A stretch of 64,000 nt of DNA from an uncultured Candidatus Saccharibacteria bacterium (GTDB lineage Bacteria; Patescibacteriota; Minisyncoccia; Phycocordibacterales; UBA9973): positions 9,366 through 73,365 of the forward strand of contig CAZYBS010000003.1 of assembly GCA_964645245.1 (NCBI GenBank). Direction: 5' to 3'. The position numbers were made by a program, and so were the translations under genes. Each line of letters starts with the position of its first letter. The stretch's first letter is position 1. The notes under the pieces were generated by a model. The model searched no databases and was not told the DNA's origin. It worked only from the letters and a program-made list of their open reading frames with translations. Positions 1,738 through 61,323 of this stretch are shown piece by piece.

Positions 1738-2229
1738 TTGACTATGAATATATTTAAAAAAGAGGCAGGTTTTACGTTGATTGAACTTTTGGTTGTCGTG
1801 GCGATTGTTGGTGTTTTGGCCAGTATTACTCTTGGGTACTTAGGCAGTGCTAAATTAAAAGGTTCCGATACAGGTGTAAAGAGTAATTTAGCCACCATGA
1901 GATCTGTCGCTGAGATTTTTTTTCTTGACAATTTTAATTCTTATTTACCTGTCGGAGGTTCAACTTTTAGCATTGCCCCTTGCCCGACTTATAATGCGTC
2001 CGGGACTAATATGTTGTCTAAAGATAAAGTTATAGCTAATGCCATAGCTGAAGCAACCTTTAGAGGCAATGGCAACTCTTGTTATAATTCCGATACTACT
2101 TGGGCTGTGGCTGTAGGCTTAAAACTAATACCGAACACTTCTTGGTGCGTAGATGTTACAGGCATAGCCAGAATGGTCAATTCTGATCCTTCGGGAGCTA
2201 TAAATGGCACCAGTTTTACTTGCAATTAG
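1738..2229 (+). CDS. Type IV pilin (second paralog, EAG|FTLIELLVVVAIVGVLA)
   Basis: Prepilin N-terminal methylation motif GFTLIELLVVVAIVGVLASITL. Size and Cys content fit a pilin. Confidence 0.8.
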   Translation: MTMNIFKKEAGFTLIELLVVVAIVGVLASITLGYLGSAKLKGSDTGVKSNLATMRSVAEIFFLDNFNSYLPVGGSTFSIAPCPTYNASGTNMLSKDKVIANAIAEATFRGNGNSCYNSDTTWAVAVGLKLIPNTSWCVDVTGIARMVNSDPSGAINGTSFTCN

Positions 2230-2240
2230 CGTAAGCTTAG

Positions 2241-3065
2241 ATGATAGCTATTCTTACAACCATCTTATTTATTTTGGGTCTGATTATCGGGAGTTTTTTA
2301 AATGTTGTAATTTGCCGACTCAATACAGCCAGATCTTTTGGCGGGAGAAGCGCGTGTATGTCTTGCCAAAACAAACTCCGTTGGTATGAGCTTATACCGC
2401 TAATTAGTTTTTTTGTACTTCGAGGCAGGTGTGGAACTTGTAGTACAAGAATTTCAACTACTTATCCGTTAGTTGAATTCATAACTGGCTTAATATTTGC
2501 CTTGCTTTTTTTGAAGTTGCAAGACGTTTTATTTTTTTCTGCATTAGTATTCACTATTACTTATGCATATTATGCAGTGATGTTTTCATTGCTCGTAGTT
2601 ATCGCAGTTTATGATTTAAGGCATAAAATAATTCCAGACATGCTTTCTTTTGTTTTTGGCGTTCTGGCATTCGTCGGCCTATTTTTCTTCCCCGCCACGG
2701 CGGGGCAAGCAAGCAATAATTTTTTTATTTTTCCTGTTTTTTCTTGGCATATTCCGTCAGTTTTGGAGTTTTTGTCGGGTGTATTTATAGGTTTACCTTT
2801 TGCTTTGTTTTGGCTGGTATCACGTGGTACTTGGATGGGATTGGGAGATGCCAAACTTGCCCTAGGCCTGGGATGGTTCCTGGGGACCTCCCTGGCATTC
2901 TCGGCTGTGGTGGTCGCTTTCTGGACTGGAGCTATAATAGGACTATGTTTTATTATTTTTAGGAAGGGCTATGGGATGAAAAGCGAAATTCCTTTTGCCT
3001 TGTATTTAGTTTTTGGCGCATTTTTAGTATTTATTTTTGACTTGAATCTTTTTGCTTATGTTTAA
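2241..3065 (+). CDS. pilD: Prepilin peptidase PilD (peptidase A24, N-terminal Cys-x2-Cys..Cys-x2-Cys zinc motif)
   Basis: LGLIIGSFLNVVICRL...CMSCQNKLRWYELIPLISFFVLRGRCGTCSTRIS and polytopic TM topology. Has an in-frame GC hairpin CCCCGCCacgGCGGGG at 2690-2705. Confidence 0.85.
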   Translation: MIAILTTILFILGLIIGSFLNVVICRLNTARSFGGRSACMSCQNKLRWYELIPLISFFVLRGRCGTCSTRISTTYPLVEFITGLIFALLFLKLQDVLFFSALVFTITYAYYAVMFSLLVVIAVYDLRHKIIPDMLSFVFGVLAFVGLFFFPATAGQASNNFFIFPVFSWHIPSVLEFLSGVFIGLPFALFWLVSRGTWMGLGDAKLALGLGWFLGTSLAFSAVVVAFWTGAIIGLCFIIFRKGYGMKSEIPFALYLVFGAFLVFIFDLNLFAYV

Positions 3066-4647
3066 ATTAATAAAAATACAAAATAATAAGAGGCCCGCCT
3101 GCTGGCAGGCAGGCATGAGCCTCACAGAACTGATTGTTGTTTTGGGTATTTTTTCTGTAATGACTTCTGTGGTTCTTTTCAATTACGGGGAATTTCAAGC
3201 AAAGGTGGATATTAAAAATTTGGCCAGTGATATTGCTCTAAAAGTTGTTGAAGCGCAAAAGTTATCTCTATCAGGTAAATTACCACCACCCGCGCAACAG
3301 GCTCTTATCACCTCTCCTTCAACCTGGAAGCCGTCTTATGGAGTTTACTTTAATCTAAATCCTATTTCTGAAAATAAGAACTTTATTTATTTTACTGATG
3401 TAGATCAGAATAAAGATTTTAATGACCCTGGCTGCGCCGGGAACGGTGAATGCCTGGAAAAAATTATTATTACAAAAGGAAACAGTATCTCTAGTTTGGA
3501 TGTTTTTTATCAAGGCGATATTACCCCTCATAATTTAAATGACTTGACTATAACTTTTACAAGGCCTAATTCAGGCGCAATTATAAAATCTTCGCAAATT
3601 ATTTTACCCCTAGCAACCCCCATCTCTTATGTTCAAGTATCTATAGTTTCACCCAAATCATCTACTGCTGCAATAAAAGTGTACTCTTCAGGCAGGATCC
3701 AAATAGAAAGTAATCCTCTCCCCCACGCCACGCCCTATACCACTCCTTATGCAACGCCCTATACCACTCCTTATGCAACGCCCTATACCACTCCATACGC
3801 TTATCAATATCAATATCAATATCAATATCAATATCAATACCAATACCAGTATCAATATCAAACTCCTTATGCATATCCGTATCCCACTCCTCCGCCTACG
3901 CCCACCATTACCTATAGCGGACCCACTTCCGGCACACATATAATTGGTTCCGGGCCTTTAAATCTAACCACCCCCGGCGCTTATACCATAACTGTTAATG
4001 TTAGTGCTTCAGTAATAGTAAAAGGTGTGGCTGGTGGTGGCGGTGGCCAGTCCGGCGGAAACGGCGGCGGCGGCGGTGCGTCTCATACCTCGGGTGTGGG
4101 CGTGACTCTTAATCCTGGGACAACTTATACGGCAAGGGTTGGAGCTGGTGGCGGCGTCAATGCCGATGGTGGGACGACGGAGTTTCTTCCGGGAGGATTT
4201 CAGCTTACCGGCGGTGGTAGTGGTGTTAATGGAGGTGCCGGGGGCATCGCCTCTGGCAGTGGTGAAAACGGGGGTAATGGCGGTGGCGGTGGTAGAACTA
4301 CTGATGGCGGTCAGGGTACTAGTGGCAAGAGCGGTGGGAGCGGCGGTCCTGGTGGTGGTGGTGGTGGTGGTGGCAACGATGAGCGTGGTCAAGAAGGCGG
4401 CGGTGGCGGTAGCGGGGGATCTGGCGGTGATCAGGGTGGCGCCGGCGGAGGTTCGAGTGGCGGACCCGGTGGTAGTGCATCCGGCAACGGCGGCGGCGGC
4501 GGTTGCTATACGTGCGGTAGTGGCGGTGGCGGTGGCGGTGGTAAGTCGCTTGCGGGAGGTTTTCGCGGCGGCGGCGGCGGCGGCGGTAGCGTCGGTGGTG
4601 GTGGTACTGGTGGTACTGGCGGTCAGGGTGCGTTAGTCATTCAATAA
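3058..4647 (+). CDS. Pseudopilin-like protein with Tyr/Pro tandem repeats and a ~200-aa Gly-rich C-terminal tail
   Basis: The leader MFKLIKIQNNKRPACWQAG|MSLTELIVVLGIF fits a class III signal. The track ORF begins at TTG 3052; ATG at 3058 is preferred. The body has (TPYTTPYATPY)x2.5 plus (YQ)x10, then GGGGGQSGGNGGGGG... to the end. Confidence 0.65.
   Translation: MFKLIKIQNNKRPACWQAGMSLTELIVVLGIFSVMTSVVLFNYGEFQAKVDIKNLASDIALKVVEAQKLSLSGKLPPPAQQALITSPSTWKPSYGVYFNLNPISENKNFIYFTDVDQNKDFNDPGCAGNGECLEKIIITKGNSISSLDVFYQGDITPHNLNDLTITFTRPNSGAIIKSSQIILPLATPISYVQVSIVSPKSSTAAIKVYSSGRIQIESNPLPHATPYTTPYATPYTTPYATPYTTPYAYQYQYQYQYQYQYQYQYQYQTPYAYPYPTPPPTPTITYSGPTSGTHIIGSGPLNLTTPGAYTITVNVSASVIVKGVAGGGGGQSGGNGGGGGASHTSGVGVTLNPGTTYTARVGAGGGVNADGGTTEFLPGGFQLTGGGSGVNGGAGGIASGSGENGGNGGGGGRTTDGGQGTSGKSGGSGGPGGGGGGGGNDERGQEGGGGGSGGSGGDQGGAGGGSSGGPGGSASGNGGGGGCYTCGSGGGGGGGKSLAGGFRGGGGGGGSVGGGGTGGTGGQGALVIQ
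3721..3870 (+). repeat. Coding tandem repeats: ~30-bp unit (acgccctataccactccttatgca) x ~2.5 followed by (tatcaa)n hexamer array of about 10 units
   Basis: Direct reading of 3721-3870. Encodes TPYTTPYATPY... and YQYQYQ. Potentially slippage-prone. Confidence 0.8.
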
Positions 4648-8690: not shown

Positions 8691-8780
8691 TGGCGGAGGC
8701 GGTGAGATTTGAACTCACGAGACCCTTTCGAGCCTGCCACCTTTCCAAGGTGGTGCACTAGACCGCTATGCGACGCCTCC
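8691..8780 (-). tRNA. tRNA-Ser (anticodon GGA), class II with long variable arm; 3' CCA encoded
   Basis: Reverse complement reads GGAGGCG..CCACC-TTGGAAA-GGTGG..long arm..GTGAG-TTCAAAT-CTCAC-CGCCTCC-G-CCA. The acceptor stem is a perfect 7 bp. Confidence 0.85.
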
Positions 8781-40214: not shown

Positions 40215-41987
40215 ATGAACTCTCCCGTTGATAAAATTAAGGAGAGGCTTTCAATCGAAGAAATAGTCTCTTCTTACATAAAACTAGATCGGGCAGGCAC
40301 GAACTTGAAAGCCAAGTGTCCATTTCACAATGAAAAGACACCGTCTTTTTTCGTCTCGCCTAACCGCGGGAGTTATTATTGCTTCGGCTGTGGAGCCAGT
40401 GGTGATATTTTCACTTTCATAGAAGAATTTGAAGGACTTGATTTTAAGGGCGCGCTTAAATTTCTAGCAAATAAGGCAGGAGTTCCGCTTGATTATTACA
40501 ATAAAGAGGAAGAGAGTGAAAAAGAGAGATTATACAGGGCAATAGAAGAGTCAACTGTTTATTTTTCTAATAATTTACTGCAAAATGTTGAAGTACTAGA
40601 ATATTTAAAATCTCGCGGATTAACCGATAGGAGCATAAAGGATTTCAGAATCGGATATGCCCTGCCAGATTGGCGTAAACTCTATGATTACTTAAAGTTT
40701 AAAAATTTTACTGACAATGAAATGGAGCATGCCGGTCTCGTCAAAAAGCCAGATGATACAAATAAATCAATGTACGACAGATTTCGTGGACGCATCATAT
40801 TTCCGATTTCTGATTCCAGCGGTCGCATCATAGCTTTCACAGGGCGAATTTTCCCTGCCTCCGCCGAAGGCGGATCCGCCTCCCCGGCCTCGCCAAGCGA
40901 AGCGGGGCGGGCTGGCGGAAAATATCTAAACAGTCCAGATACTATAATTTTCAGCAAGTCCGCGGTGCTTTATGGATTAGATAAGGCTAAAGAATCAATT
41001 CGCAAGAATAATTTTTCTATTTTAGTTGAAGGTCAGATGGATTTGGTATTATCACATCAAGCGGGATATAAAAATACGGTTGCAACATCTGGCACGGCTT
41101 TGTCCGACTCGACGGTTTCGAAAGAAAATGTTATTTCCAACTTAGGACTTATTCGTCGTCTTTCTCCAAATATTGTGTTAGCATTTGACGCAGATAAAGC
41201 AGGATTTAATGCCTCAAATAGAGCCGGCAGGATTGCTTTATCTCTGGGCATGGATGTGAAAGTAGCATTTATGCCCGAGGGCATGGATCCGGCTGACTTG
41301 ATTTCTCAAAATGGTTCTCTTGCTGGTCCGGATGCCTGGCGTCTTGCCATTAGAAATTCCAAACATATAATAGAATTTCTTTTAGAAAAAGTCTTAAAGG
41401 ATTCTGGAGGCGATACGCGCAAGGCCGGAAGGGGAATAAAAGAAAAAATATTGCCTTATGTAGACGCGCTTGAGAGTTCAATAGAAAAAATGCATTTTAT
41501 AAAAAAAATAAGCGATGCTTCGGGAATTCCGGAAAGTGCTCTTAAAGATGATTTAAAGACAATTGAACAAGAATTGAAATATGAAACAGAAGAAACAGAA
41601 ACTGCTAAAGAAAATGTGGAGAAAAAATTTAGAAAAGACCCAATTGAACGCAGGCTTTTAGGAATAGCTTTTTGGCAAGAGAGTATGCAAAATAGAACCA
41701 TAGACCCAGAACTTATTTTTAAAAAATTAGATAAAGTAAAAAAAGTTTACGAAGATATAAAAGAAGATCTAATTTACGAGGCAGAAGTATTTTATTCTAA
41801 TAGTGAAAATTTACAAAAAGACGTAAATGAGATGTTGCTGAATATTGAAGAAGAGTATTTAAATGAAGAACTTGTTAAAAAAATGATAGAACTTAAGAAT
41901 CTAAAAGATAAAAAAGAAGAAATAGAAATTTTAAAAAAGATAAACGAAATAAATAAAAGAAAAGAAGAAATTAAAAATAATCGTTAA
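40215..41987 (+). CDS. dnaG: DNA primase DnaG (carries an in-frame family C insert)
   Basis: Zn-ribbon CPFHNEKTPSFFVSPNRGSYYCFGCGASGD, Toprim EGQMDLVLSHQAGYKNTVATSGTAL...AFDADKAG. Confidence 0.88.
   Translation: MNSPVDKIKERLSIEEIVSSYIKLDRAGTNLKAKCPFHNEKTPSFFVSPNRGSYYCFGCGASGDIFTFIEEFEGLDFKGALKFLANKAGVPLDYYNKEEESEKERLYRAIEESTVYFSNNLLQNVEVLEYLKSRGLTDRSIKDFRIGYALPDWRKLYDYLKFKNFTDNEMEHAGLVKKPDDTNKSMYDRFRGRIIFPISDSSGRIIAFTGRIFPASAEGGSASPASPSEAGRAGGKYLNSPDTIIFSKSAVLYGLDKAKESIRKNNFSILVEGQMDLVLSHQAGYKNTVATSGTALSDSTVSKENVISNLGLIRRLSPNIVLAFDADKAGFNASNRAGRIALSLGMDVKVAFMPEGMDPADLISQNGSLAGPDAWRLAIRNSKHIIEFLLEKVLKDSGGDTRKAGRGIKEKILPYVDALESSIEKMHFIKKISDASGIPESALKDDLKTIEQELKYETEETETAKENVEKKFRKDPIERRLLGIAFWQESMQNRTIDPELIFKKLDKVKKVYEDIKEDLIYEAEVFYSNSENLQKDVNEMLLNIEEEYLNEELVKKMIELKNLKDKKEEIEILKKINEINKRKEEIKNNR
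40857..40918. repeat. Family C GC-rich element in-frame in dnaG (encodes PASAEGGSASPASPSEAGRAGG). Hairpin CCGCCgaaGGCGG + the same 35-mer
   Basis: Identical 35-mer to the rpoB copy. The flanking hairpin differs in sequence but keeps its pairing. Confidence 0.8.
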
Positions 41988-41997
41988 TTAAAAAAGT

Positions 41998-43194
41998 ATG
42001 AAAAAGAAAAACAAAAAATTAAATAGAAAAAGAAAAAAGCTTAAAATCAAAAAAATAAAGAGAATTAAGAAAAAAATTTTAAAGAAAAAAGCTGTCAAAA
42101 AAATAAAAAAATTATCTTCAATTGGGAAAAAAGCGGAAAGTTTAGCTCGCATTTCCAGTGAGCTTATAGAAAAAGGACGCAAAAGGGGATTTATTACTTA
42201 TGATGAAATATTAAAAACTTTCCCTGACATTGAAAATAATATTCTATTTTTAGACGAACTTTATGAGAAATTTGGAATTGCCGGGATTGATGTGCTAGAA
42301 GGCGGAAATTTGCTTAATCTTGATATTGATTTGACTGATAAAGATTTAAATAAATCGAGCATGCATGATTCTATCCAAATGTATCTTAAGGAAATAGGTC
42401 AGTATCCGCTGATTCATGCGGGTGATGAAAAGGAACTTGCCAAACGCATTGAGCATGGCGATTTAGAAGCGAAAAATTTGCTGGCGCGCGCCAACTTGCG
42501 TCTGGTCGTTTCAATTGCTAAAAAATATGTGGGCAGGTCCGCCAATTTGACTCTGTTGGATTTAATTCAGGAAGGTAATTTAGGATTATTCAAGGCAGTT
42601 GAAAAATTTGATTGGACTAAAGGATATAAATTCTCTACTTATGCGACTTGGTGGATTCGCCAGTCTATTACTCGCGCGCTGGCTGACCAGTCCAGAACTA
42701 TTCGCATACCAGTGCATATGGTGGAGACAATTTCTAAATATAAACAAACGCATCGCAGACTTAGCCAGGATTTAGGCCGAGAGCCATTGGCCGAAGAAAT
42801 TGCCACGGAAATGGGTATTCCGGTGGAAAAAATCCATGTAATTGAAAACATTTCGCAAGAGACAGTTTCGTTGGAACAGCCCGTCGGGGACGATGATGAT
42901 AAGTCAACCCTGGAAAACTTTATTCCAGATGATAAAATTTTACGTCCAGACCAAGAGTCTTCCCGCCGAATTCTCTCAGATCAAATTCGCGAAGTTTTGA
43001 ATGAGCTCAATCCCAAGGAGCGCAAAATACTGGAGATGCGTTATGGATTACTAGATGGTATTCAACACACCCTGGAGCGAGTAGGCGAAGAATTTGGCGT
43101 GACTCGTGAGCGTATTCGTCAAATCGAAGCGAAAGTGCACGAAAAACTCCGCCAGCACGAAAAAATCTCCCGCTTAAAGAGCCACTTTGACTAG
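41998..43194 (+). CDS. rpoD: RNA polymerase primary sigma factor (sigma-70 family) with Lys-rich N-terminus
   Basis: Region 1.2/2 ([15 protein letters not shown]...[37 protein letters not shown]...[13 protein letters not shown]), region 4 ([20 protein letters not shown]). Confidence 0.9.
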
Positions 43195-43937
43195 TTTTCA
43201 ACAAACCCAGCAAATCCAGCAAGAAATCCAGCAAGGGTAGTCCTTGCTGGACTATAGTGTTGACGAAATATTTCTTCTTGTGTTTTGAAATCTAATTTCA
43301 CGTTTTTTATATATTCTGGGATAAAAGAAAAGTCAATAATGCTTGATTCTGGCCGATTATTTTTTAGAAAATCTGGATAACTTGATAATTGATATTTTTT
43401 TAAAAATTCTTCGGCTTCTTTTTTATTTTTTATACCTGTTTCTTTCCATTTTCCATCTAAGATTGAAAGAGGATTAAGATGCAAGTATGAAAATATATAC
43501 ATATATTGCGCTTCATTGTTTAAGTGCTCGGATCGAAATGGATGTGTAAATAGAGGACCGCTACGCTCGTATTTTGTGTTGAAATACATTGAATATGCAG
43601 TCAGAAGTTTACCCATAAATTTACTTATACCGCCCTCGGTATGCTCATATAAAATCAAATGAAAATGATTTGGCATTAGACAATAACCTAAAATTGAAAC
43701 CAAGGCTTTCTCTCTTTCTTCTTTAAAAATTTCTCTAAGCTGATTTTTATTTTTTTGTAAAAAATTATCCATTCTAAACGATACGTCTTGATTCATAATA
43801 TACAAAAGAGCCACGAAACGACTATAGTCCCTTGCGTTCAAAAATATCTTGCGTTTTTCTACGCCGCGAGAATAAATGTGGTAATGTTCATTTTCCGCAA
43901 ATGGGGTTTTTCGATACATTCCTAGATTGTATAACAA
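43191..43937 (-). CDS. Y1 HuH transposase (IS200-like / REP-associated tyrosine transposase family), 248 aa
   Basis: [15 protein letters not shown]...[16 protein letters not shown] (HuH motif)...[12 protein letters not shown]. The C-terminal [11 protein letters not shown] is encoded by the terminal hairpin repeats. Confidence 0.7.
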
Positions 43938-43975
43938 AATCGAAACTCCAGCAAGGACTACCCTTGCTGAATTGC
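43191..43975 (-). mobile_element. Compact IS200/IS605-like or RAYT-like element: Y1 (HuH) transposase gene flanked by inverted hairpin repeats CCAGCAAGG-n5-CCTTGCTGG
   Basis: Hairpin at 43237-43259 (loop gtagt) and its reverse complement at 43951-43972 (loop actac) bracket the ORF. The element abuts the rpoD stop. Confidence 0.65.
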
Positions 43976-43980
43976 TTTAA

Positions 43981-44338
43981 TTACAACAAATGACCTCCTT
44001 TAGGAAATAGTCTGTCAAACTCTGTCTCAATTTGTTCAATCTCTACTGGCGTTAAAACTCTATTTTTGTAATCAAATGATTCGATATATGAAATTAGTTC
44101 TTGAATCGTTTCTTCATTTATCCCACTGGAAGTATGGAATATACTATCTTTAAGCCCAGTGATTAGTTCCTGAAGCTTTCCCAGTAAACGAGCAATTTGC
44201 CCTCTAGAAGACTCAACAGTAACCTCTACCGCGGGCTGTCGCTGGATCTTTATAAAAATCCAACCTCAAGGGCGTCATCGTAGTGGTAAACCAATGCCTT
44301 AAATATGAATTTGGAGATTGTTTAAATTCTTCAACCAT
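43981..44338 (-). pseudogene. Possible frameshifted gene remnant next to the IS (41-codon ATG ORF + overlapping ~90-codon start-less ORF)
   Basis: MVEEFKQSPNSYLRHWFTTTMTPLRLDFYKDPATA... in one frame, continuing as ...VEVTVESSRGQIARLLGKLQELITGLKDSIFHTSSGINEETIQELISYIESFDYKNRVLTPVEIEQIETEFDRLFPKGGHLL in the +1 frame. Read by eye; not in the ORF track. Confidence 0.25.
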
Positions 44339-48220: not shown

Positions 48221-48296
48221 TGGAGCCGCCTCTCGGACTCGAACCGAGGACCGACTGTTTACAAAACAGTTGCTCTACCAACTGAGCTAAGGCGGC
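48221..48296 (-). tRNA. tRNA-Thr (anticodon UGU); CCA encoded
   Basis: Reverse complement GCCGCCT-TA-GCTC-AGTTGGTA-GAGC-A-ACTGT-TTTGTAA-ACAGT-CGGTC-CTCGG-TTCGAGT-CCGAG-AGGCGGC-T-CCA with all stems perfect. Confidence 0.9.
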
Positions 48297-48526
48297 AATA
48301 CTTTCTTTAAAAATCTTCTTCCTGCTGCTGACTTTAAATATAATTCTCTTTTTCTTGCCTCTTCAAATGTAGCATATCGTTCTTTATAAACAAGTATTAA
48401 CTCTTTCATGTGGTTCGTAGTTATTGTGTGCCCAGAATGGTGTTCAGCCAGTCTTCTTTTCAGATTATTTGTCATTCCCTTATATACTTTTCCTTTATTA
48501 TCTTTTAGTACATAAACTGTAAACAT
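48287..48526 (-). CDS. Small GIY-YIG nuclease-domain protein (79 aa) ending inside the 5' end of tRNA-Thr
   Basis: FTVYVLKDNKGKVYKGMTNNLKRRLAEHHSG is the GIY-YIG core. The last codons (CCG CCT TAG) are tRNA nucleotides 3-10. Confidence 0.7.
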   Translation of the reverse strand: MFTVYVLKDNKGKVYKGMTNNLKRRLAEHHSGHTITTNHMKELILVYKERYATFEEARKRELYLKSAAGRRFLKKVLPP

Positions 48527-50309: not shown

Positions 50310-50520
50310 GATCTAAATTTTGTATAACAGTGTGGATAAAGCAAGGATTTCCTACAAGTAAATATAGTAAAAGAATGGTGCTTATTTAAAGATTTACAGA
50401 CCTTGCTTTATTTATTAGGTAGTAGTAAATTATAAGCATAAAGGTACAATAACATTTATTAACTAATATTAATTTCTTGAAGTTGACCGATTGGGTCATA
50501 TAAGGGAAAGGAGAAAAAAT

Positions 50521-50889
50521 ATGGACGAAAGAAAATTTGGAAGTGTGCCTCCACAGGAGGGTATGAAGACTGAGGCTGAGAAAGCAAAGGATGTAAGAGA
50601 TCGGATAGGCGCGAGCCCTGGACACGGTTCGCATTATGAATGGGATAACGGAATTGATAGAGTGCCTAATGTTAGTGAGGCAGCAGCATTGCTTGATGAG
50701 ATGCGTCGGTTGATTCGCGCACAAATGAATGAGCGCTTGCATTTTGCAGACCGTAGCTTTACAGAGAACACCGTTCAATCATTGGCTAATCGTGCCGCAA
50801 AACGATTAGGTGTTACGGTCGAAGAAATTATGGCCGAGTGCAAAGAAAAAGATACTACTGCCGATATTGAAGCTTACCGAAAAAAGTAA
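50521..50889 (+). CDS. Small hydrophilic hypothetical protein (about 122 aa), higher GC than its surroundings, immediately upstream of an IS200/RAYT-like element
   Basis: RBS GGAGAAAAAAT before ATG 50521. The track ORF starts earlier at 50491. Confidence 0.35.
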   Translation: MDERKFGSVPPQEGMKTEAEKAKDVRDRIGASPGHGSHYEWDNGIDRVPNVSEAAALLDEMRRLIRAQMNERLHFADRSFTENTVQSLANRAAKRLGVTVEEIMAECKEKDTTADIEAYRKK

Positions 50890-50894
50890 CACCT

Positions 50895-51665
50895 TCTTTA
50901 TAGACGTCCGACATCTACAGTGATATATTATAGGCATGAGAAAACATCCTTTTATCACTGGTTCATATTTTCATATTTACAACAGAGGCGTTGATAAACG
51001 TGATATTTTCATGGACGGAAAAGATGTGGAAAGATTTTTATTGTGCATGAAGTTGTTTGCATATAAAGATCCCGTAGGAAGTTTAGAATTAGCGCTTCGT
51101 GAACAAGAATCATTTGTAGACGTTCGACATCTCCAAATTCCGGCAGATAGAAAACGATTGGTTTCCATTGTTGAATATTGTCTTAACCCAAATCATTTTC
51201 ATTTTATACTGAAACAGGAACTTGGTGGTGGTATTAGTGAATTTATGAAGCGATTACAGGGTGGTTACACAAGGTATTTTAATGATAAAAATAACCGTAG
51301 CGGAGCGTTACTTCAAGGTAAATTTAAATCAAGCTACGCAGAGAAAGAAAATTATTTTGAAATGCTTTTTGCATATGTGATGTGGAATTATAAGGTCCAC
51401 AATATCTCTAAAAATAAATTAAAATTAACACGTAGTAGTGAAGAAGAATATAAAACAGCCAATTTTTATATAATAAATCCAAAAGAAGGAAAAAAGTTTT
51501 TAGAATGGTTCGGTGATTATAAAAGTTTCCTTAAACATGGAAAGGAAATAATTGATCTGGTGCGGGAAAGTAGGGGTAAGAAACCCTGGAAAGCCGACAG
51601 TAAAGAGGAAGTAAGTTTTGATTATAATGATGATTAAATGTAGACGTCCGACGTCTACAAAGGTG
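50895..51665 (+). mobile_element. Second IS200/RAYT-like element: Y1 transposase gene flanked by near-palindromic hairpins TAGACGTCCGAC(A/G)TCTACA
   Basis: Hairpin at 50902-50920 upstream and 51642-51660 downstream (TGTAGACGTC-C-GACGTCTACA). A degenerate copy lies inside the ORF at about 51105. Confidence 0.65.
50936..51637 (+). CDS. Y1 HuH transposase (IS200-like / RAYT family), 233 aa
   Basis: SYFHIYNRGVDKRDIF...VEYCLNPNHFHFILKQ (HuH)...YVMWNY. Paralogous to 43191-43937 at roughly 35% identity by eye. Confidence 0.7.
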   Translation: MRKHPFITGSYFHIYNRGVDKRDIFMDGKDVERFLLCMKLFAYKDPVGSLELALREQESFVDVRHLQIPADRKRLVSIVEYCLNPNHFHFILKQELGGGISEFMKRLQGGYTRYFNDKNNRSGALLQGKFKSSYAEKENYFEMLFAYVMWNYKVHNISKNKLKLTRSSEEEYKTANFYIINPKEGKKFLEWFGDYKSFLKHGKEIIDLVRESRGKKPWKADSKEEVSFDYNDD

Positions 51666-51736
51666 TCTATAGACGAAAGGTAAGAATTACATTTTTCTGC
51701 TTTGACCAAAAGACTTTTTTCGGTTAAGATGAGTTA

Positions 51737-56452: not shown

Positions 56453-56923
56453 ATGAAAAATTATTTTATTGGTTTTGCTGTATTAGTTATTTTTTTTGTA
56501 TCTTATCACTCTTGGACGGCCGTCAATTTTGATAATATAAAATATGTTCGGATAGCCGGGCAGAATATTAAAGTTGAACTTGCTTTGACCGAAAGGGAGC
56601 AAGAAAAAGGGCTTTCCGGAAGAAGCGGACTCGAAGAAGATAAAGGCATGTTGTTTGTTTTTTCCGCCCAAGGCGGATTCGCCTCTGGCGGAGATAAAGC
56701 TAACCACCCTAGATTTTGGATGAAGGATATGAATTTCGCAATAGATATAATTTGGATTGGGGAGGATTTACGAATAGTTTACATAAAAAAAGATGCTCGG
56801 CCCGAATCTTATCCGGAAACTTTCGGCTCTGACCAAAATTCCAAATATGTTTTGGAAGTTATTGCCGGTTTCGCGGATAAAAATAATTTGAAAAAAGGGG
56901 ATAGGGTGAAGCTCGTTTACTAA
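56453..56923 (+). CDS. DUF192 (COG1430) family protein with signal/TM N-terminus
   Basis: IKVELALTEREQEKGLSGRSGLEEDKGMLFVF...MKDMNFAIDIIWIGED is the DUF192 core. Confidence 0.65.
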   Translation: MKNYFIGFAVLVIFFVSYHSWTAVNFDNIKYVRIAGQNIKVELALTEREQEKGLSGRSGLEEDKGMLFVFSAQGGFASGGDKANHPRFWMKDMNFAIDIIWIGEDLRIVYIKKDARPESYPETFGSDQNSKYVLEVIAGFADKNNLKKGDRVKLVY

Positions 56924-57017: not shown

Positions 57018-57330
57018 TTTTTTGTTGCAGGCATCTATAAGCCGAATTCTGTATTCCCGACGCAAGGTCGGGATGATAGCAATTTGTCTAGGTCCGGCAT
57101 TACTGCGGGACTCAAGCGATTCTTCCCTCGATTTCTCTCGGGGCACGATCTTGCACAGGAGTAAGTATTTAGCCGTTTCAGCCGGACTTAACCGGGTCGT
57201 TTCTGTTCGCAACTCCGTATCACTACGGAAGGGTATTACCCTCTACTTTTTCCCGCTAAGCGGGATCTGTGTTCGGACTTTCCTCCCCTCACCTCTAGAG
57301 GTGAGGGGTAGCTATCCAATACCTGCTCAG
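57018..57330 (-). ncRNA. rnpB: RNase P RNA, reduced bacterial form (about 310 nt)
   Basis: On the minus strand: P4 5' strand GGAGGAAAGTCCGAACACAG and P4 3' strand ATACAGAATTCGGCTTATAGATG (consensus GGAAAGUCCGG...ACAGAAnnCGGCUUA). P1 pairing GAGCAGGTA/GATGCCTGC. Terminator CTCCGCCcataaGGCGGAG+TTTT at the 3' end. Putative promoter TTGCGA-17-TGTAAACT at 57333-57361. Confidence 0.8.
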
Positions 57331-60394: not shown

Positions 60395-60467
60395 TGGACC
60401 CTAGCGGTCTCGAACCGCTCACCTCCTCATTGCAAATGAGGCGCTCTACCAGATGAGCTAAGGGCCC
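60395..60467 (-). tRNA. tRNA-Ala (anticodon UGC) with G3:U70; CCA not encoded
   Basis: Reverse complement GGGCCCT-TA-GCTC-ATCTGGTA-GAGC-G-CCTCA-TTTGCAA-TGAGG-AGGTG-AGCGG-TTCGAGA-CCGCT-AGGGTCC-A. Confidence 0.88.
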
Positions 60468-60488
60468 CTCTGCTCGCGAGCAGAGGGG

Positions 60489-60761
60489 CTAAGGGCCCTC
60501 CACTTGCAAGCCAGACGAATTCTTTATTCTCTTTTTCAACTCTTTATATCCAGCGGAAAAACGTTTCAACATGTCTTCGCGATGTTTGGCGTCAGCTTGT
60601 GCTTTATATGCTTCATAATAAACAAGCTGAAAAGGTGCTTTGTGTTTTGTTGAAACATTTTTACCGCTATTATGTTCCACCAAACGCCTTTTCAAATCAT
60701 TTGTGTATCCAATGTATAACTCCTTTAATCTAGCACTCTTTAATACGTAAACATAATACAT
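60489..60761 (-). CDS. Small GIY-YIG nuclease-domain protein (90 aa) immediately upstream of tRNA-Ala
   Basis: YYVYVLKSARLKELYIGYTNDLKRRLVEHNSG is the GIY-YIG core. Stop lies 21 nt from the tRNA 5' end. The gap holds the palindrome CCTCTGCTCGCGAGCAGAGG flanked by a duplicated GCTAAGGGCCC. Confidence 0.7.
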   Translation of the reverse strand: MYYVYVLKSARLKELYIGYTNDLKRRLVEHNSGKNVSTKHKAPFQLVYYEAYKAQADAKHREDMLKRFSAGYKELKKRIKNSSGLQVEGP

Positions 60762-61003: not shown

Positions 61004-61323
61004 TCCGGGGTAGCTCAGCGGTAGAGCGATCGCCTGTAGAGAGATGCAGCTTCCTAAAGAAACTTAGGAATGAAAACAAGGTGAATTCGGGGAAGCCCTT
61101 CGAGATAAACTCTCAGGGTAATCCCGAGCCAAGCTCTGGTAAGCCAGAGAAGGTGTAGAGACTATCCATTTATGGAGTACATCAACACTAAATGTTGATG
61201 GAAGCGCCTTGCTCCTAAACTTATAGCGCAGGCTATGAATATGGAGATGATATAGTCCACACTTCTAGTAATAGGAGATAAAGTGTAAGCGATTGGTCGT
61301 AGGTTCGATCCCTACCCCCGGAG
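61004..61323 (+). tRNA. tRNA-Asn (anticodon GUU) interrupted by a 248-nt group I intron in the anticodon loop (exons 61004-61037 and 61286-61323)
   Basis: Exons: TCCGGGG-TA-GCTC-AGCGGTA-GAGC-G-ATCGC-CTGT|TAA-GCGAT-TGGTC-GTAGG-TTCGATC-CCTAC-CCCCGGA-G. The spliced loop CUGUUAA and discriminator G73 match bacterial tRNA-Asn. Confidence 0.75.
61038..61285 (+). ncRNA. Group I self-splicing intron (IC3-like, as in bacterial tRNA introns)
   Basis: P7 strands GTAGAGACTATCC and GATGATATAGTCC. P4/P6 conserved ACTCTCAGGGTAATCCCGAGCCAAGC (compare cyanobacterial tRNA-Leu intron CUCAGGGAAACC...AAUCCUGAGCCAAGCC). IGS GCAG pairs with exon CUGU with U.G at the 5' splice site. Terminal omega-G at 61285. Confidence 0.75.

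Follow-up and report, generated by a model that had tools for sequence, protein, structure and literature searches.

Two Y1 transposase-like genes with cognate hairpins in a Parcubacteria contig: probable REPtron- and TIRtron-type modules

What kind of element is a Y1 transposase gene that sits among its own hairpins in a Parcubacteria genome, and what are these hairpins to it? The question is raised by a stretch of 64,000 nucleotides (hereafter the window, with a GC content of ~40%) from contig CAZYBS010000003.1 of assembly GCA_964645245.1 (positions 9,366 to 73,365), deposited as an uncultured Candidatus Saccharibacteria bacterium and placed by GTDB in the Patescibacteriota (UBA9973). An initial annotation, made from the letters alone, noticed two such genes and likened them to REP-associated tyrosine transposases (RAYTs), the companions of repetitive extragenic palindromes (REPs). 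We find that the window probably contains two paralogous modules of the REPtron/TIRtron type, each consisting of a gene and copies of its cognate hairpin, from a Parcubacteria-specific branch of the class-2 TnpA-Y1 enzymes. The two genes are the following.

43191-43919, minus strand: Y1A (gene A), 242 amino acids, with the motifs HIYSRG, NHFH (HuH), YLHLNP (catalytic tyrosine) and LSSY; a class-2 TnpA-Y1, RAYT/TIRYT-like.
50936-51637, plus strand: Y1B (gene B), 233 amino acids, with the motifs HIYNRG, NHFH and YVMWNY; a second class-2-like TnpA-Y1.

The full open reading frame (ORF) of gene A runs from 43191 to 43937 on the minus strand (248 amino acids), and the ATG at 43919, the start used in the NCBI record, leaves 242. 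Both proteins match the Pfam family Y1_Tnp (PF01797; 38.6 bits for Y1A and 31.6 bits for Y1B, with a cut-off of 23) and share 35% identity (E 4e-32); a search of the 64-kb window for a third Y1 gene found none. The top NCBIfam match of both is REP_Tyr_transpos (NF047646), at 44 bits for Y1A and 26.3 bits for Y1B against a cut-off of 80. The HuH motif and the block upstream of it, on which the initial annotation had relied, are present in both proteins. In an alignment of 33 diverse members, H14, R18, G19, H85, Y145 and N149 show no variation, and at least 90% of the sequences keep H87; what is kept is the N-terminal H-x-x-x-R-G block, the HuH histidines, an F-N pair, and the tyrosine followed by N, and the catalytic apparatus is therefore under selection. 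The A family is marked by NHFH, LFQG (the consensus, LFT in the window), Y[VIL]HLNP and YSSY, and the B family by NHFH, LLQG and YVMWNY. The tyrosine motif of Y1A, YLHLNP, has the class-2 form Y---NP, and the YVMWNY of Y1B keeps the asparagine and loses the proline.

Because sequence searches of the PDB with Y1A and Y1B returned nothing useful, a fold search was needed to place these proteins. An AlphaFold (AF2) model was made for Y1A alone (pLDDT 81), and its top Foldseek match in the PDB is 4er8, the E. coli TnpAREP with a REP hairpin (E 3e-6, TM-score 0.67 normalised to the target). The TnpA proteins of ISDra2 and IS608 rank behind it (E ~2e-4), and all 15 fold matches at E<=0.001 are Y1 transposases. 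Past the SS motif, the tail of Y1A has ~40 residues only, and no C-terminal domain like Bac_DnaA_C, HTH_23 or HTH_28 was matched in it by Pfam at E<=0.1. Rfam gave no family at either Y1 locus. Y1A and Y1B are most probably class-2 TnpA-Y1 proteins, RAYT/TIRYT-like, and not IS200 transposases; the leaning of the initial annotation towards RAYTs is borne out by the best NCBIfam match (below its cut-off), by the first place of 4er8 in the fold search, and by the Y---NP motif of gene A.

The family to which they belong is large, with more than 2000 matches per gene and 1069 clusters (50% identity) at E<=1e-30, and every match with a named source comes from a Patescibacteria lineage (Parcubacteria, Nomurabacteria, Paceibacterota). 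Paralogues inside single genomes are 35-61% identical (35% for the pair in the window, 49-61% in other genomes), and no near-identical Y1 copies were found in the window or among 48 genome loci.

The surroundings of gene A hold a hairpin of the form CCAGCAAGG-N5-CCTTGCTGG, which we call hairpin A, and the features that bear on it are these.

43228-43250: hairpin A, 3' gene-distal copy; the plus strand reads CCAGCAAGG-GTAGT-CCTTGCTGG; lies where rpoD and Y1A converge, within the extended Y1A ORF.
43948-43970: hairpin A, upstream 5' copy, with one mismatch; centre 40 nt before the ATG, loop inverted relative to the 3' copy.
43203-43235: three partial tandem copies of the hairpin-A arm (CCAGCAA), translated within the Y1A tail.
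43926-43931, minus strand: TACAAT, a -10-like hexamer, at 17 nt from the hairpin arm TTGCTG, with the ATG following after 6 nt; read by eye.
43981-44338, minus strand: two ORF pieces (41 and ~78 amino acids) between dsbA and hairpin A.

The hairpin pattern has two matches in the 64 kb, with 0.01 expected, and its two copies are embedded in a pair of inverted 31-nt arms with 94% complementarity. Their folding energies as single-stranded DNA are -11.6 and -8.5 kcal/mol, with z values of -6.8 and -5.3. The last ~20 codons of Y1A are a read-through of the downstream hairpin and of the three partial arm repeats, as the initial annotation had noted when it described the repeats as partly translated; in close relatives the gene-A ORF stops right before the hairpin (with a TAG in locus L001) or enters it. 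The same annotation had placed the element exactly between the rpoD stop and a frameshifted gene remnant. The first boundary is confirmed, the rpoD stop (43192-43194) overlapping the stop of the gene-A ORF (43191-43193), and on the other side the two ORF pieces at 43981-44338 stop 10 nt short of the upstream hairpin; their status as a frameshifted small gene is possible, and neither piece has a Pfam match.

We compared this arrangement with 48 loci fetched from species-representative genomes (L numbers below denote loci or genomes of the comparison). In the 23 A-type loci the centre of the hairpin lies ~40 nt before the ATG, and the second copy is found at or within ~27 nt of the stop, or overlaps the end of the ORF. 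Each locus has one stem common to both of its hairpin copies, and stems vary between loci by compensatory changes (GAGCAAGG, CAGCAAGG, GAGCGAGG, AATCGAGG, GCACAAGG, ATATCAAGG, GTCCCGAGG and others), the top of the stem being nearly always AGG-loop-CCT. Across 24 distinct hairpins all nine of the nine stem pairs changed on both sides, and 96% of the cells pair, a percentage biased upward by the stem search through which the hairpins were picked; in the control, where the partners were slid by 1-3 columns, 36-50% pair. The stronger evidence for covariation is the variety of pair types together with the fixed position. More distant subfamilies have a three-copy layout, with a third copy in frame in the ORF and stems of their own. 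Besides the window, more than 40 related loci have a Y1 gene flanked by its own cognate palindromes.

The A hairpins had been described in the initial annotation as inverted. This holds in the window and does not hold as a trait of the family: the loop orientation is the same in 17 of the 23 A-type loci, and one loop is flipped in the remaining six. Recombination of one hairpin with the other was considered and rejected as the origin of the one-sided loop flip at gene A, since such an event would leave either both loops flipped or none. The flip would have to have taken place inside a single hairpin, or to stem from a separate insertion.

Hairpin A stays with its gene. No copy of a locus's own hairpin was found more than ~1 kb from any Y1 gene in 820 kb of flanks, and A-type hairpins are absent from 408 kb of other Parcubacteria contigs. 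In these samples hairpin A is not a dispersed REP, an outcome that the initial annotation had named as speaking against its reading; this applies to gene A alone. In a few loci a third copy lies 0.1-0.9 kb off and brackets an ordinary neighbour gene, among them (by reading of the translations) those of a peptide deformylase, a release-factor-like protein and a histidine phosphatase. Scans of viral contigs, run as a check on chance matches, returned no match to hairpin A or to palindrome B (see below).

At least 11 loci, with an RpoD 88-96% identical to that of the window, have the order GT2-dsbA-Y1-rpoD-dnaG, a synteny that argues for long vertical residence of module A; some close orthologues of gene A lie at other genomic sites. 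The rpoD-dsbA site is empty in L135 and L136, whose RpoD is the most similar (97% identical), and in L138 and L139: all four have 77 bp between rpoD and dsbA, with neither a Y1 gene nor the presumed remnant. A fifth relative, L137, has two unrelated genes there. From the empty sites in the nearest relatives it follows that module A is gained or lost as a unit, though rarely.

Gene B lies in an insertion of its own, accompanied by a different palindrome, which we call palindrome B.

50310-51700: ~1.4-kb insertion between the rpsB and proS promoters, which includes the ORF at 50491-50889.
50491-50889, plus strand: ORF of 132 amino acids inside the Y1B-bearing 1.4-kb insertion; no Pfam match, and no B palindrome on its far side.
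50899-50919: upstream B palindrome TATAGACGTCCGACATCTACA, decayed, its GTAG foot now ATAG; -0.3 kcal/mol.
51114-51136: internal in-frame B copy, degenerate, translated FVDVRHLQ; ~180 nt past the ATG, between the N-terminal block and the HuH motif.
51639-51659: downstream B palindrome TGTAGACGTC-C-GACGTCTACA, perfect, 21 nt, with the 'double foot' GTAG...CTAC; begins 2 nt past the stop.

By chance, no copy of palindrome B is expected in the window. The downstream copy is the one stable B hairpin here (-8.4 kcal/mol); the internal copy folds at -0.8 kcal/mol, and it and the upstream copy have z values of ~0, their pairing being lost. Module B looks quiescent in this window because two of its three palindromes are decayed and there are no further copies in the 64 kb. 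With their ORFs, their Pfam domain and these cognate palindromes, the two genes are distinct Y1 genes each with its own hairpins, which is what the initial annotation had claimed.

The divergent rpsB-proS site is empty in three related genomes (L010, L007 and L027), with 63-82 bp between the genes. Relatives with an empty site thus exist for both insertions of the window, which is what the initial annotation had proposed to look for. In a fourth genome, L015, the site holds a short GC-rich insert; the end of its proS ORF (3200-3260) reads through a dimer of a hairpin family, ACTTGGAGG-TCTTG-CCTCCAAGT, similar to the hairpins on either side of the L049 and L051 Y1 genes. A fifth, L012 (Nomurabacteria Ike-150m-34), has at the same site a different Y1 gene and a cargo ORF with three hairpins of another type: this insertion of 1.45 kb (2080-3560; cargo ORF of 227 amino acids, no Pfam match) has the three hairpins, AATTGCTAGG-CAAGA-CCTAGCAATT, at its limits and at an internal division, and a direct repeat of 21 bp, CTTTTGCAACTTTGACCAAAA, on its flanks. 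A target duplication is not expected of Y1 transposition, in contrast to this direct repeat.

Orthologues of Y1B that are 76-88% identical occur in four different gene contexts, and all of them carry three copies of palindrome B: one upstream (near -39), one within the ORF at about +170 to +180 that is read in frame as VDVRRLQ, and one right past the stop. One B-type orthologue (P0127, 82% identical, at L058-L060) has NHFY, having lost the second HuH histidine, and all three of its palindromes are perfect; judging by these residues, it may be an inactive enzyme with intact sites.

A scan of a metagenome collection with GTAGACGTCNGACGTCTAC gave 72 loci with 89 copies, of which about 20 are in or beside a Y1B gene; most loci have no Y1 gene in the stretch that was fetched. 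The remaining copies are solo or paired, on contigs of 35-47% GC, nearly all with extended TT...AA flanks, and one match in a contig of 70% GC looks like chance. Several contigs have two or three separate copies, and the copy number is low (2-3 exact copies per contig of 40-1000 kb). A-runs, not T-runs, follow the palindrome on both strands. About 30 of the solo copies, in other Parcubacteria contigs and not in this window, lie in frame inside long ORFs and read VDV(G/R)RLQ or CRR(P/R)TST; the third reading frame contains a TAG. Identified by sequence, their host ORFs encode LeuRS, UvrA, CysRS, ArgRS, GAPDH, ATP synthase gamma, PyrF, RecR, thymidylate kinase and others, and against the solved structures of LeuRS and ATP synthase gamma the residues encoded by the palindrome appear as a clean 6-residue gap. 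These copies show that palindrome B spreads in related Parcubacteria into essential genes, with the reading frame kept.

How such modules might work is suggested by their relatives. In E. coli TnpAREP and in the TnpA of IS608 and ISDra2, the DNA is cut and rejoined next to a hairpin. On the strength of this homology and of the distribution of copies, we infer that Y1A and Y1B bind, cleave and mobilise their hairpins: each enzyme would recognise its own hairpin in single-stranded DNA and would cut and rejoin beside it by means of its HuH metal site and catalytic tyrosine. Module B would then be REPtron-like, its palindrome flanking the gene, lying in frame inside it, and being scattered between and in genes of related Parcubacteria. 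Module A would be TIRtron-like, or a minimal, rarely moving unit whose hairpins are private to the flanks of the gene and coevolve with it, the upstream one lying at a fixed distance from the ATG, where a promoter would be.

Several observations weigh against assigning the two modules to the REPtron/TIRtron type. Both proteins score under the NCBIfam REP_Tyr_transpos cut-off, the Y---NP motif is without its proline in gene B, and the family sequence profile, which has a weak match to ISDra2 TnpA in the PDB (E 0.02), does not reach 4er8. Hairpin A has no GT[AG]G foot, GTAG and CTAC being confined to its loop, and, undispersed as it is, it gives no sign of being mobilised on its own. In the 64-kb window neither hairpin A nor palindrome B has a copy away from its own gene, and the loci sampled do not link solo B palindromes to a Y1B gene within one genome. 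The selection bias in the covariation percentage counts on the same side.

A wider version of the same idea, which we think rather unlikely, would make the two genes members of a large undescribed radiation of Y1 genes in Parcubacteria, in which each paralogue can insert its private palindrome, with the frame kept, into essential genes as well as into the gene that encodes it; the source of this genome's GC-rich insertions, such as the one in DnaG, would then be another paralogue, since lost or lying outside the window.

Among the readings that differ in kind, the first is that of ordinary IS200/IS605-type elements: minimal tnpA-only IS whose flanking palindromes are the left and right ends, moved by peel-and-paste. 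The same-orientation hairpins at the majority of A-type loci are as for the ends of IS200/IS605 elements, the unit of ~760 bp is of IS200 size, occupied and empty sites both exist, and the orthologues of gene B lie in four unrelated gene contexts. We nevertheless consider this reading unlikely. The NCBIfam IS200 model (NF033573, cut-off 55) gives 17.3 bits for Y1A and no match for Y1B, the tyrosine motif is Y---N(P) here and Y---Q there (PMC6006769), and the proteins have 242 and 233 amino acids as against ~150 for the core-only TnpA of IS200. The fold is closer to TnpAREP, and there is no adjacent tnpB gene. Near-identical copies were not seen, the paralogues within a genome being as divergent as given above, and gene A stays beside rpoD in species with RpoD proteins of 88-96% identity.

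According to a further explanation, the hairpins are transcription signals only, the operator and the terminator of a domesticated gene, kept alike by gene conversion and with no role in cleavage or transposition. It draws on the constant distance of upstream hairpin A from the ATG and on the TATAAT-like hexamer that always follows ~17 nt past this hairpin, a few bases before the ATG, in A-type loci. In the window the order is TTGCTG-17-TACAAT-6-ATG, with a weak match to a -35 element (3 of 6 positions), and a promoter scan did not report the site; a promoter overlapping the upstream hairpin is a weak inference from the sequence. The upstream copy of palindrome B likewise overlaps a promoter-like TAGACG-17-TATATT, upstream hairpin A scores as terminator-like for the preceding gene, and gene A is syntenic and apparently vertically inherited. 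Against this, the same hairpin stands on both sides of the gene, a third copy lies in frame in gene B and in the more distant subfamilies, and extra copies bracket neighbouring genes. Solo B copies inside other genes can serve as neither promoter nor terminator, A-runs rather than T-runs follow the B palindromes on both strands, and the -35 match for A is poor. We hold this explanation to be quite improbable.

The initial annotation had gone on to suggest that the RAYTs might spread the GC-rich in-frame elements of this genome, in whose window 68 GC-rich patches were listed. These elements are real, polymorphic insertions. The GC-rich in-frame insert of DnaG at 40853-40921 (PASAEGGSASPASPSEAGRAGG) is missing from the DnaG of L135, L138 and L001, and in the DnaG of L137 this position is taken by a different insert, with a further one upstream; the loop appears to be an insertion hot spot. 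That one or both Y1 enzymes mobilise the GC-rich elements is most improbable, even though the elements are real and polymorphic and in-frame insertion is seen in related genomes for palindrome B, which is associated with a Y1 gene. The elements have no sequence in common with hairpin A or palindrome B, their commonest type (TCCGCC-N3-4-GGCGGA hairpins) was not consistently near Y1 genes in 1.3 Mb, and in known RAYT systems the dispersed repeat is always the repeat that flanks the gene (PMC6006769). The suggestion is unsupported in this form; the more general idea, of Y1-linked palindromes that spread in frame, receives indirect support from the B palindromes in housekeeping genes of related genomes.

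Some GC-rich hairpins are also found as tandem pairs, TCAGCC-nnn-GGCTGA followed by TCCGCC-nnn-GGCGGA or in the reverse order, at 1699-1730 and 56663-56695 of the window and in other genomes (L010 at 9077, L025 at 320, L031 at 5235, L032 at 9150, L036 at 16316 and L120 at 9388). The double hairpin is intergenic in several Parcubacteria species, usually has an A-run after it, and has no Rfam match.

The remainder of the window contains other features, listed here for completeness.

61028-61278, plus strand: Rfam group I intron match, 58 bits, over the gathering score.
57022-57327, minus strand: RNase P RNA (class A).
48224-48296, 60395-60467 and 8694-8780, minus strand: tRNA genes.
60462-60498: GC-rich palindrome GGGCCCCTCTGCTCGCGAGCAGAGGGGCTAAGGGCCC, overlapping the tRNA gene at 60395-60467.
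48287-48526, minus strand: small ORF (MFTVYVLKDNKGKVYKGMTNNLKRRLAEHHSG...) with the look of a GIY-YIG-type nuclease, by eye only; it adjoins the tRNA gene at 48224-48296, with an overlap of ~10 bp at the 3' end.
3718-3900 and 4029-4631: long in-frame tandem repeats, of 12-nt units (T-P-Y-A-like) and then a Gly-rich GGN run, 55% GC; they appear to lie in a large surface protein.

To our knowledge, RAYT/REP and TIRYT systems have been described nearly always in Proteobacteria, Cyanobacteria and Bacteroidetes, and we found no literature linking RAYTs with the candidate phyla radiation (CPR). RAYT/TIRYT-like genes are common and diverse in Parcubacteria with their very small genomes, each gene with a coevolving hairpin. 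They provide a specific candidate for the enzyme behind some short in-frame insertions of the sort typical of CPR proteins, as well as natural enzyme-hairpin pairs in which target recognition by HUH enzymes could be studied. For annotation, both genes should be recorded as RAYT/TIRYT-like, not IS200, and the GC-rich elements should not be attributed to them. Each feature of the two modules has published precedent in other phyla: double-foot REPs, in-frame REPs inside tnpAREP itself and REPtrons (PMC6006769), and TIRtrons and REPs inside genes (PMC3733652).

Among known systems, module B is closest to the REPtron, a RAYT/TnpAREP gene with flanking REPs (subclass 2.4 of Quentin et al. 2018, Bertels group 4). 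It shares with it the NHFH form of the HuH motif, the double foot of 5' GTAG and 3' CTAC, and the single-copy gene (PMC6006769; PMC3733652), as well as a palindrome that lies in frame in the transposase gene and is scattered in related genomes, including inside genes. It differs in that its internal copy comes before the HuH motif, not between HuH and the tyrosine; in its tyrosine motif, YVMWNY or YVNKNY without the proline, and in LQ or FQ instead of WQ; in the length of Y1B (233 amino acids, as against ~194) and its score under the NCBIfam RAYT cut-off; and in a low copy number, with no copies away from the gene in the window.

Module A is closest to the TIRtron and its TIRYT enzyme (subclass 2.1, Bertels group 1). 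The protein resembles TIRYTs in NH[YF]H, FQ (in the family consensus), Y[IVL]HLNP and SS past the tyrosine (PMC6006769, Table 1), in a length of ~225-240 amino acids, and in its few, divergent copies (PMC6006769; PMC3733652), and the module resembles a TIRtron in its flanking, inverted, partly self-complementary repeats that are repeated hardly or not at all elsewhere in the genome. Unlike TIRYTs, Y1A has no detected C-terminal DnaA_C/HTH domain. The flanks are short hairpins with an AGG-loop-CCT top instead of GGGGWSAS terminal inverted repeats, the hairpins are direct and not inverted in most orthologues of the module, and the host belongs to the Parcubacteria, which the published surveys consulted do not mention.

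With IS200, both loci share a unit of ~0.7 kb, a single Y1 HUH gene between two hairpins of which one is near the start of the gene, and the absence of a target duplication at either window site; they differ in subclass and tyrosine motif, in lacking near-identical multicopy elements, and in their long-term synteny. A last comparison is with the Rickettsia palindromic elements and the intragenic REPs, which are likewise short in-frame palindromes in essential genes of a reduced genome (PMC3733652), with aminoacyl-tRNA synthetases and proteins of repair and replication as hosts, and which are tolerated as short peptide insertions. Palindrome B differs from the Rickettsia elements in measuring just ~21 nt (6-7 codons) and in having a candidate cognate enzyme encoded beside its copies.

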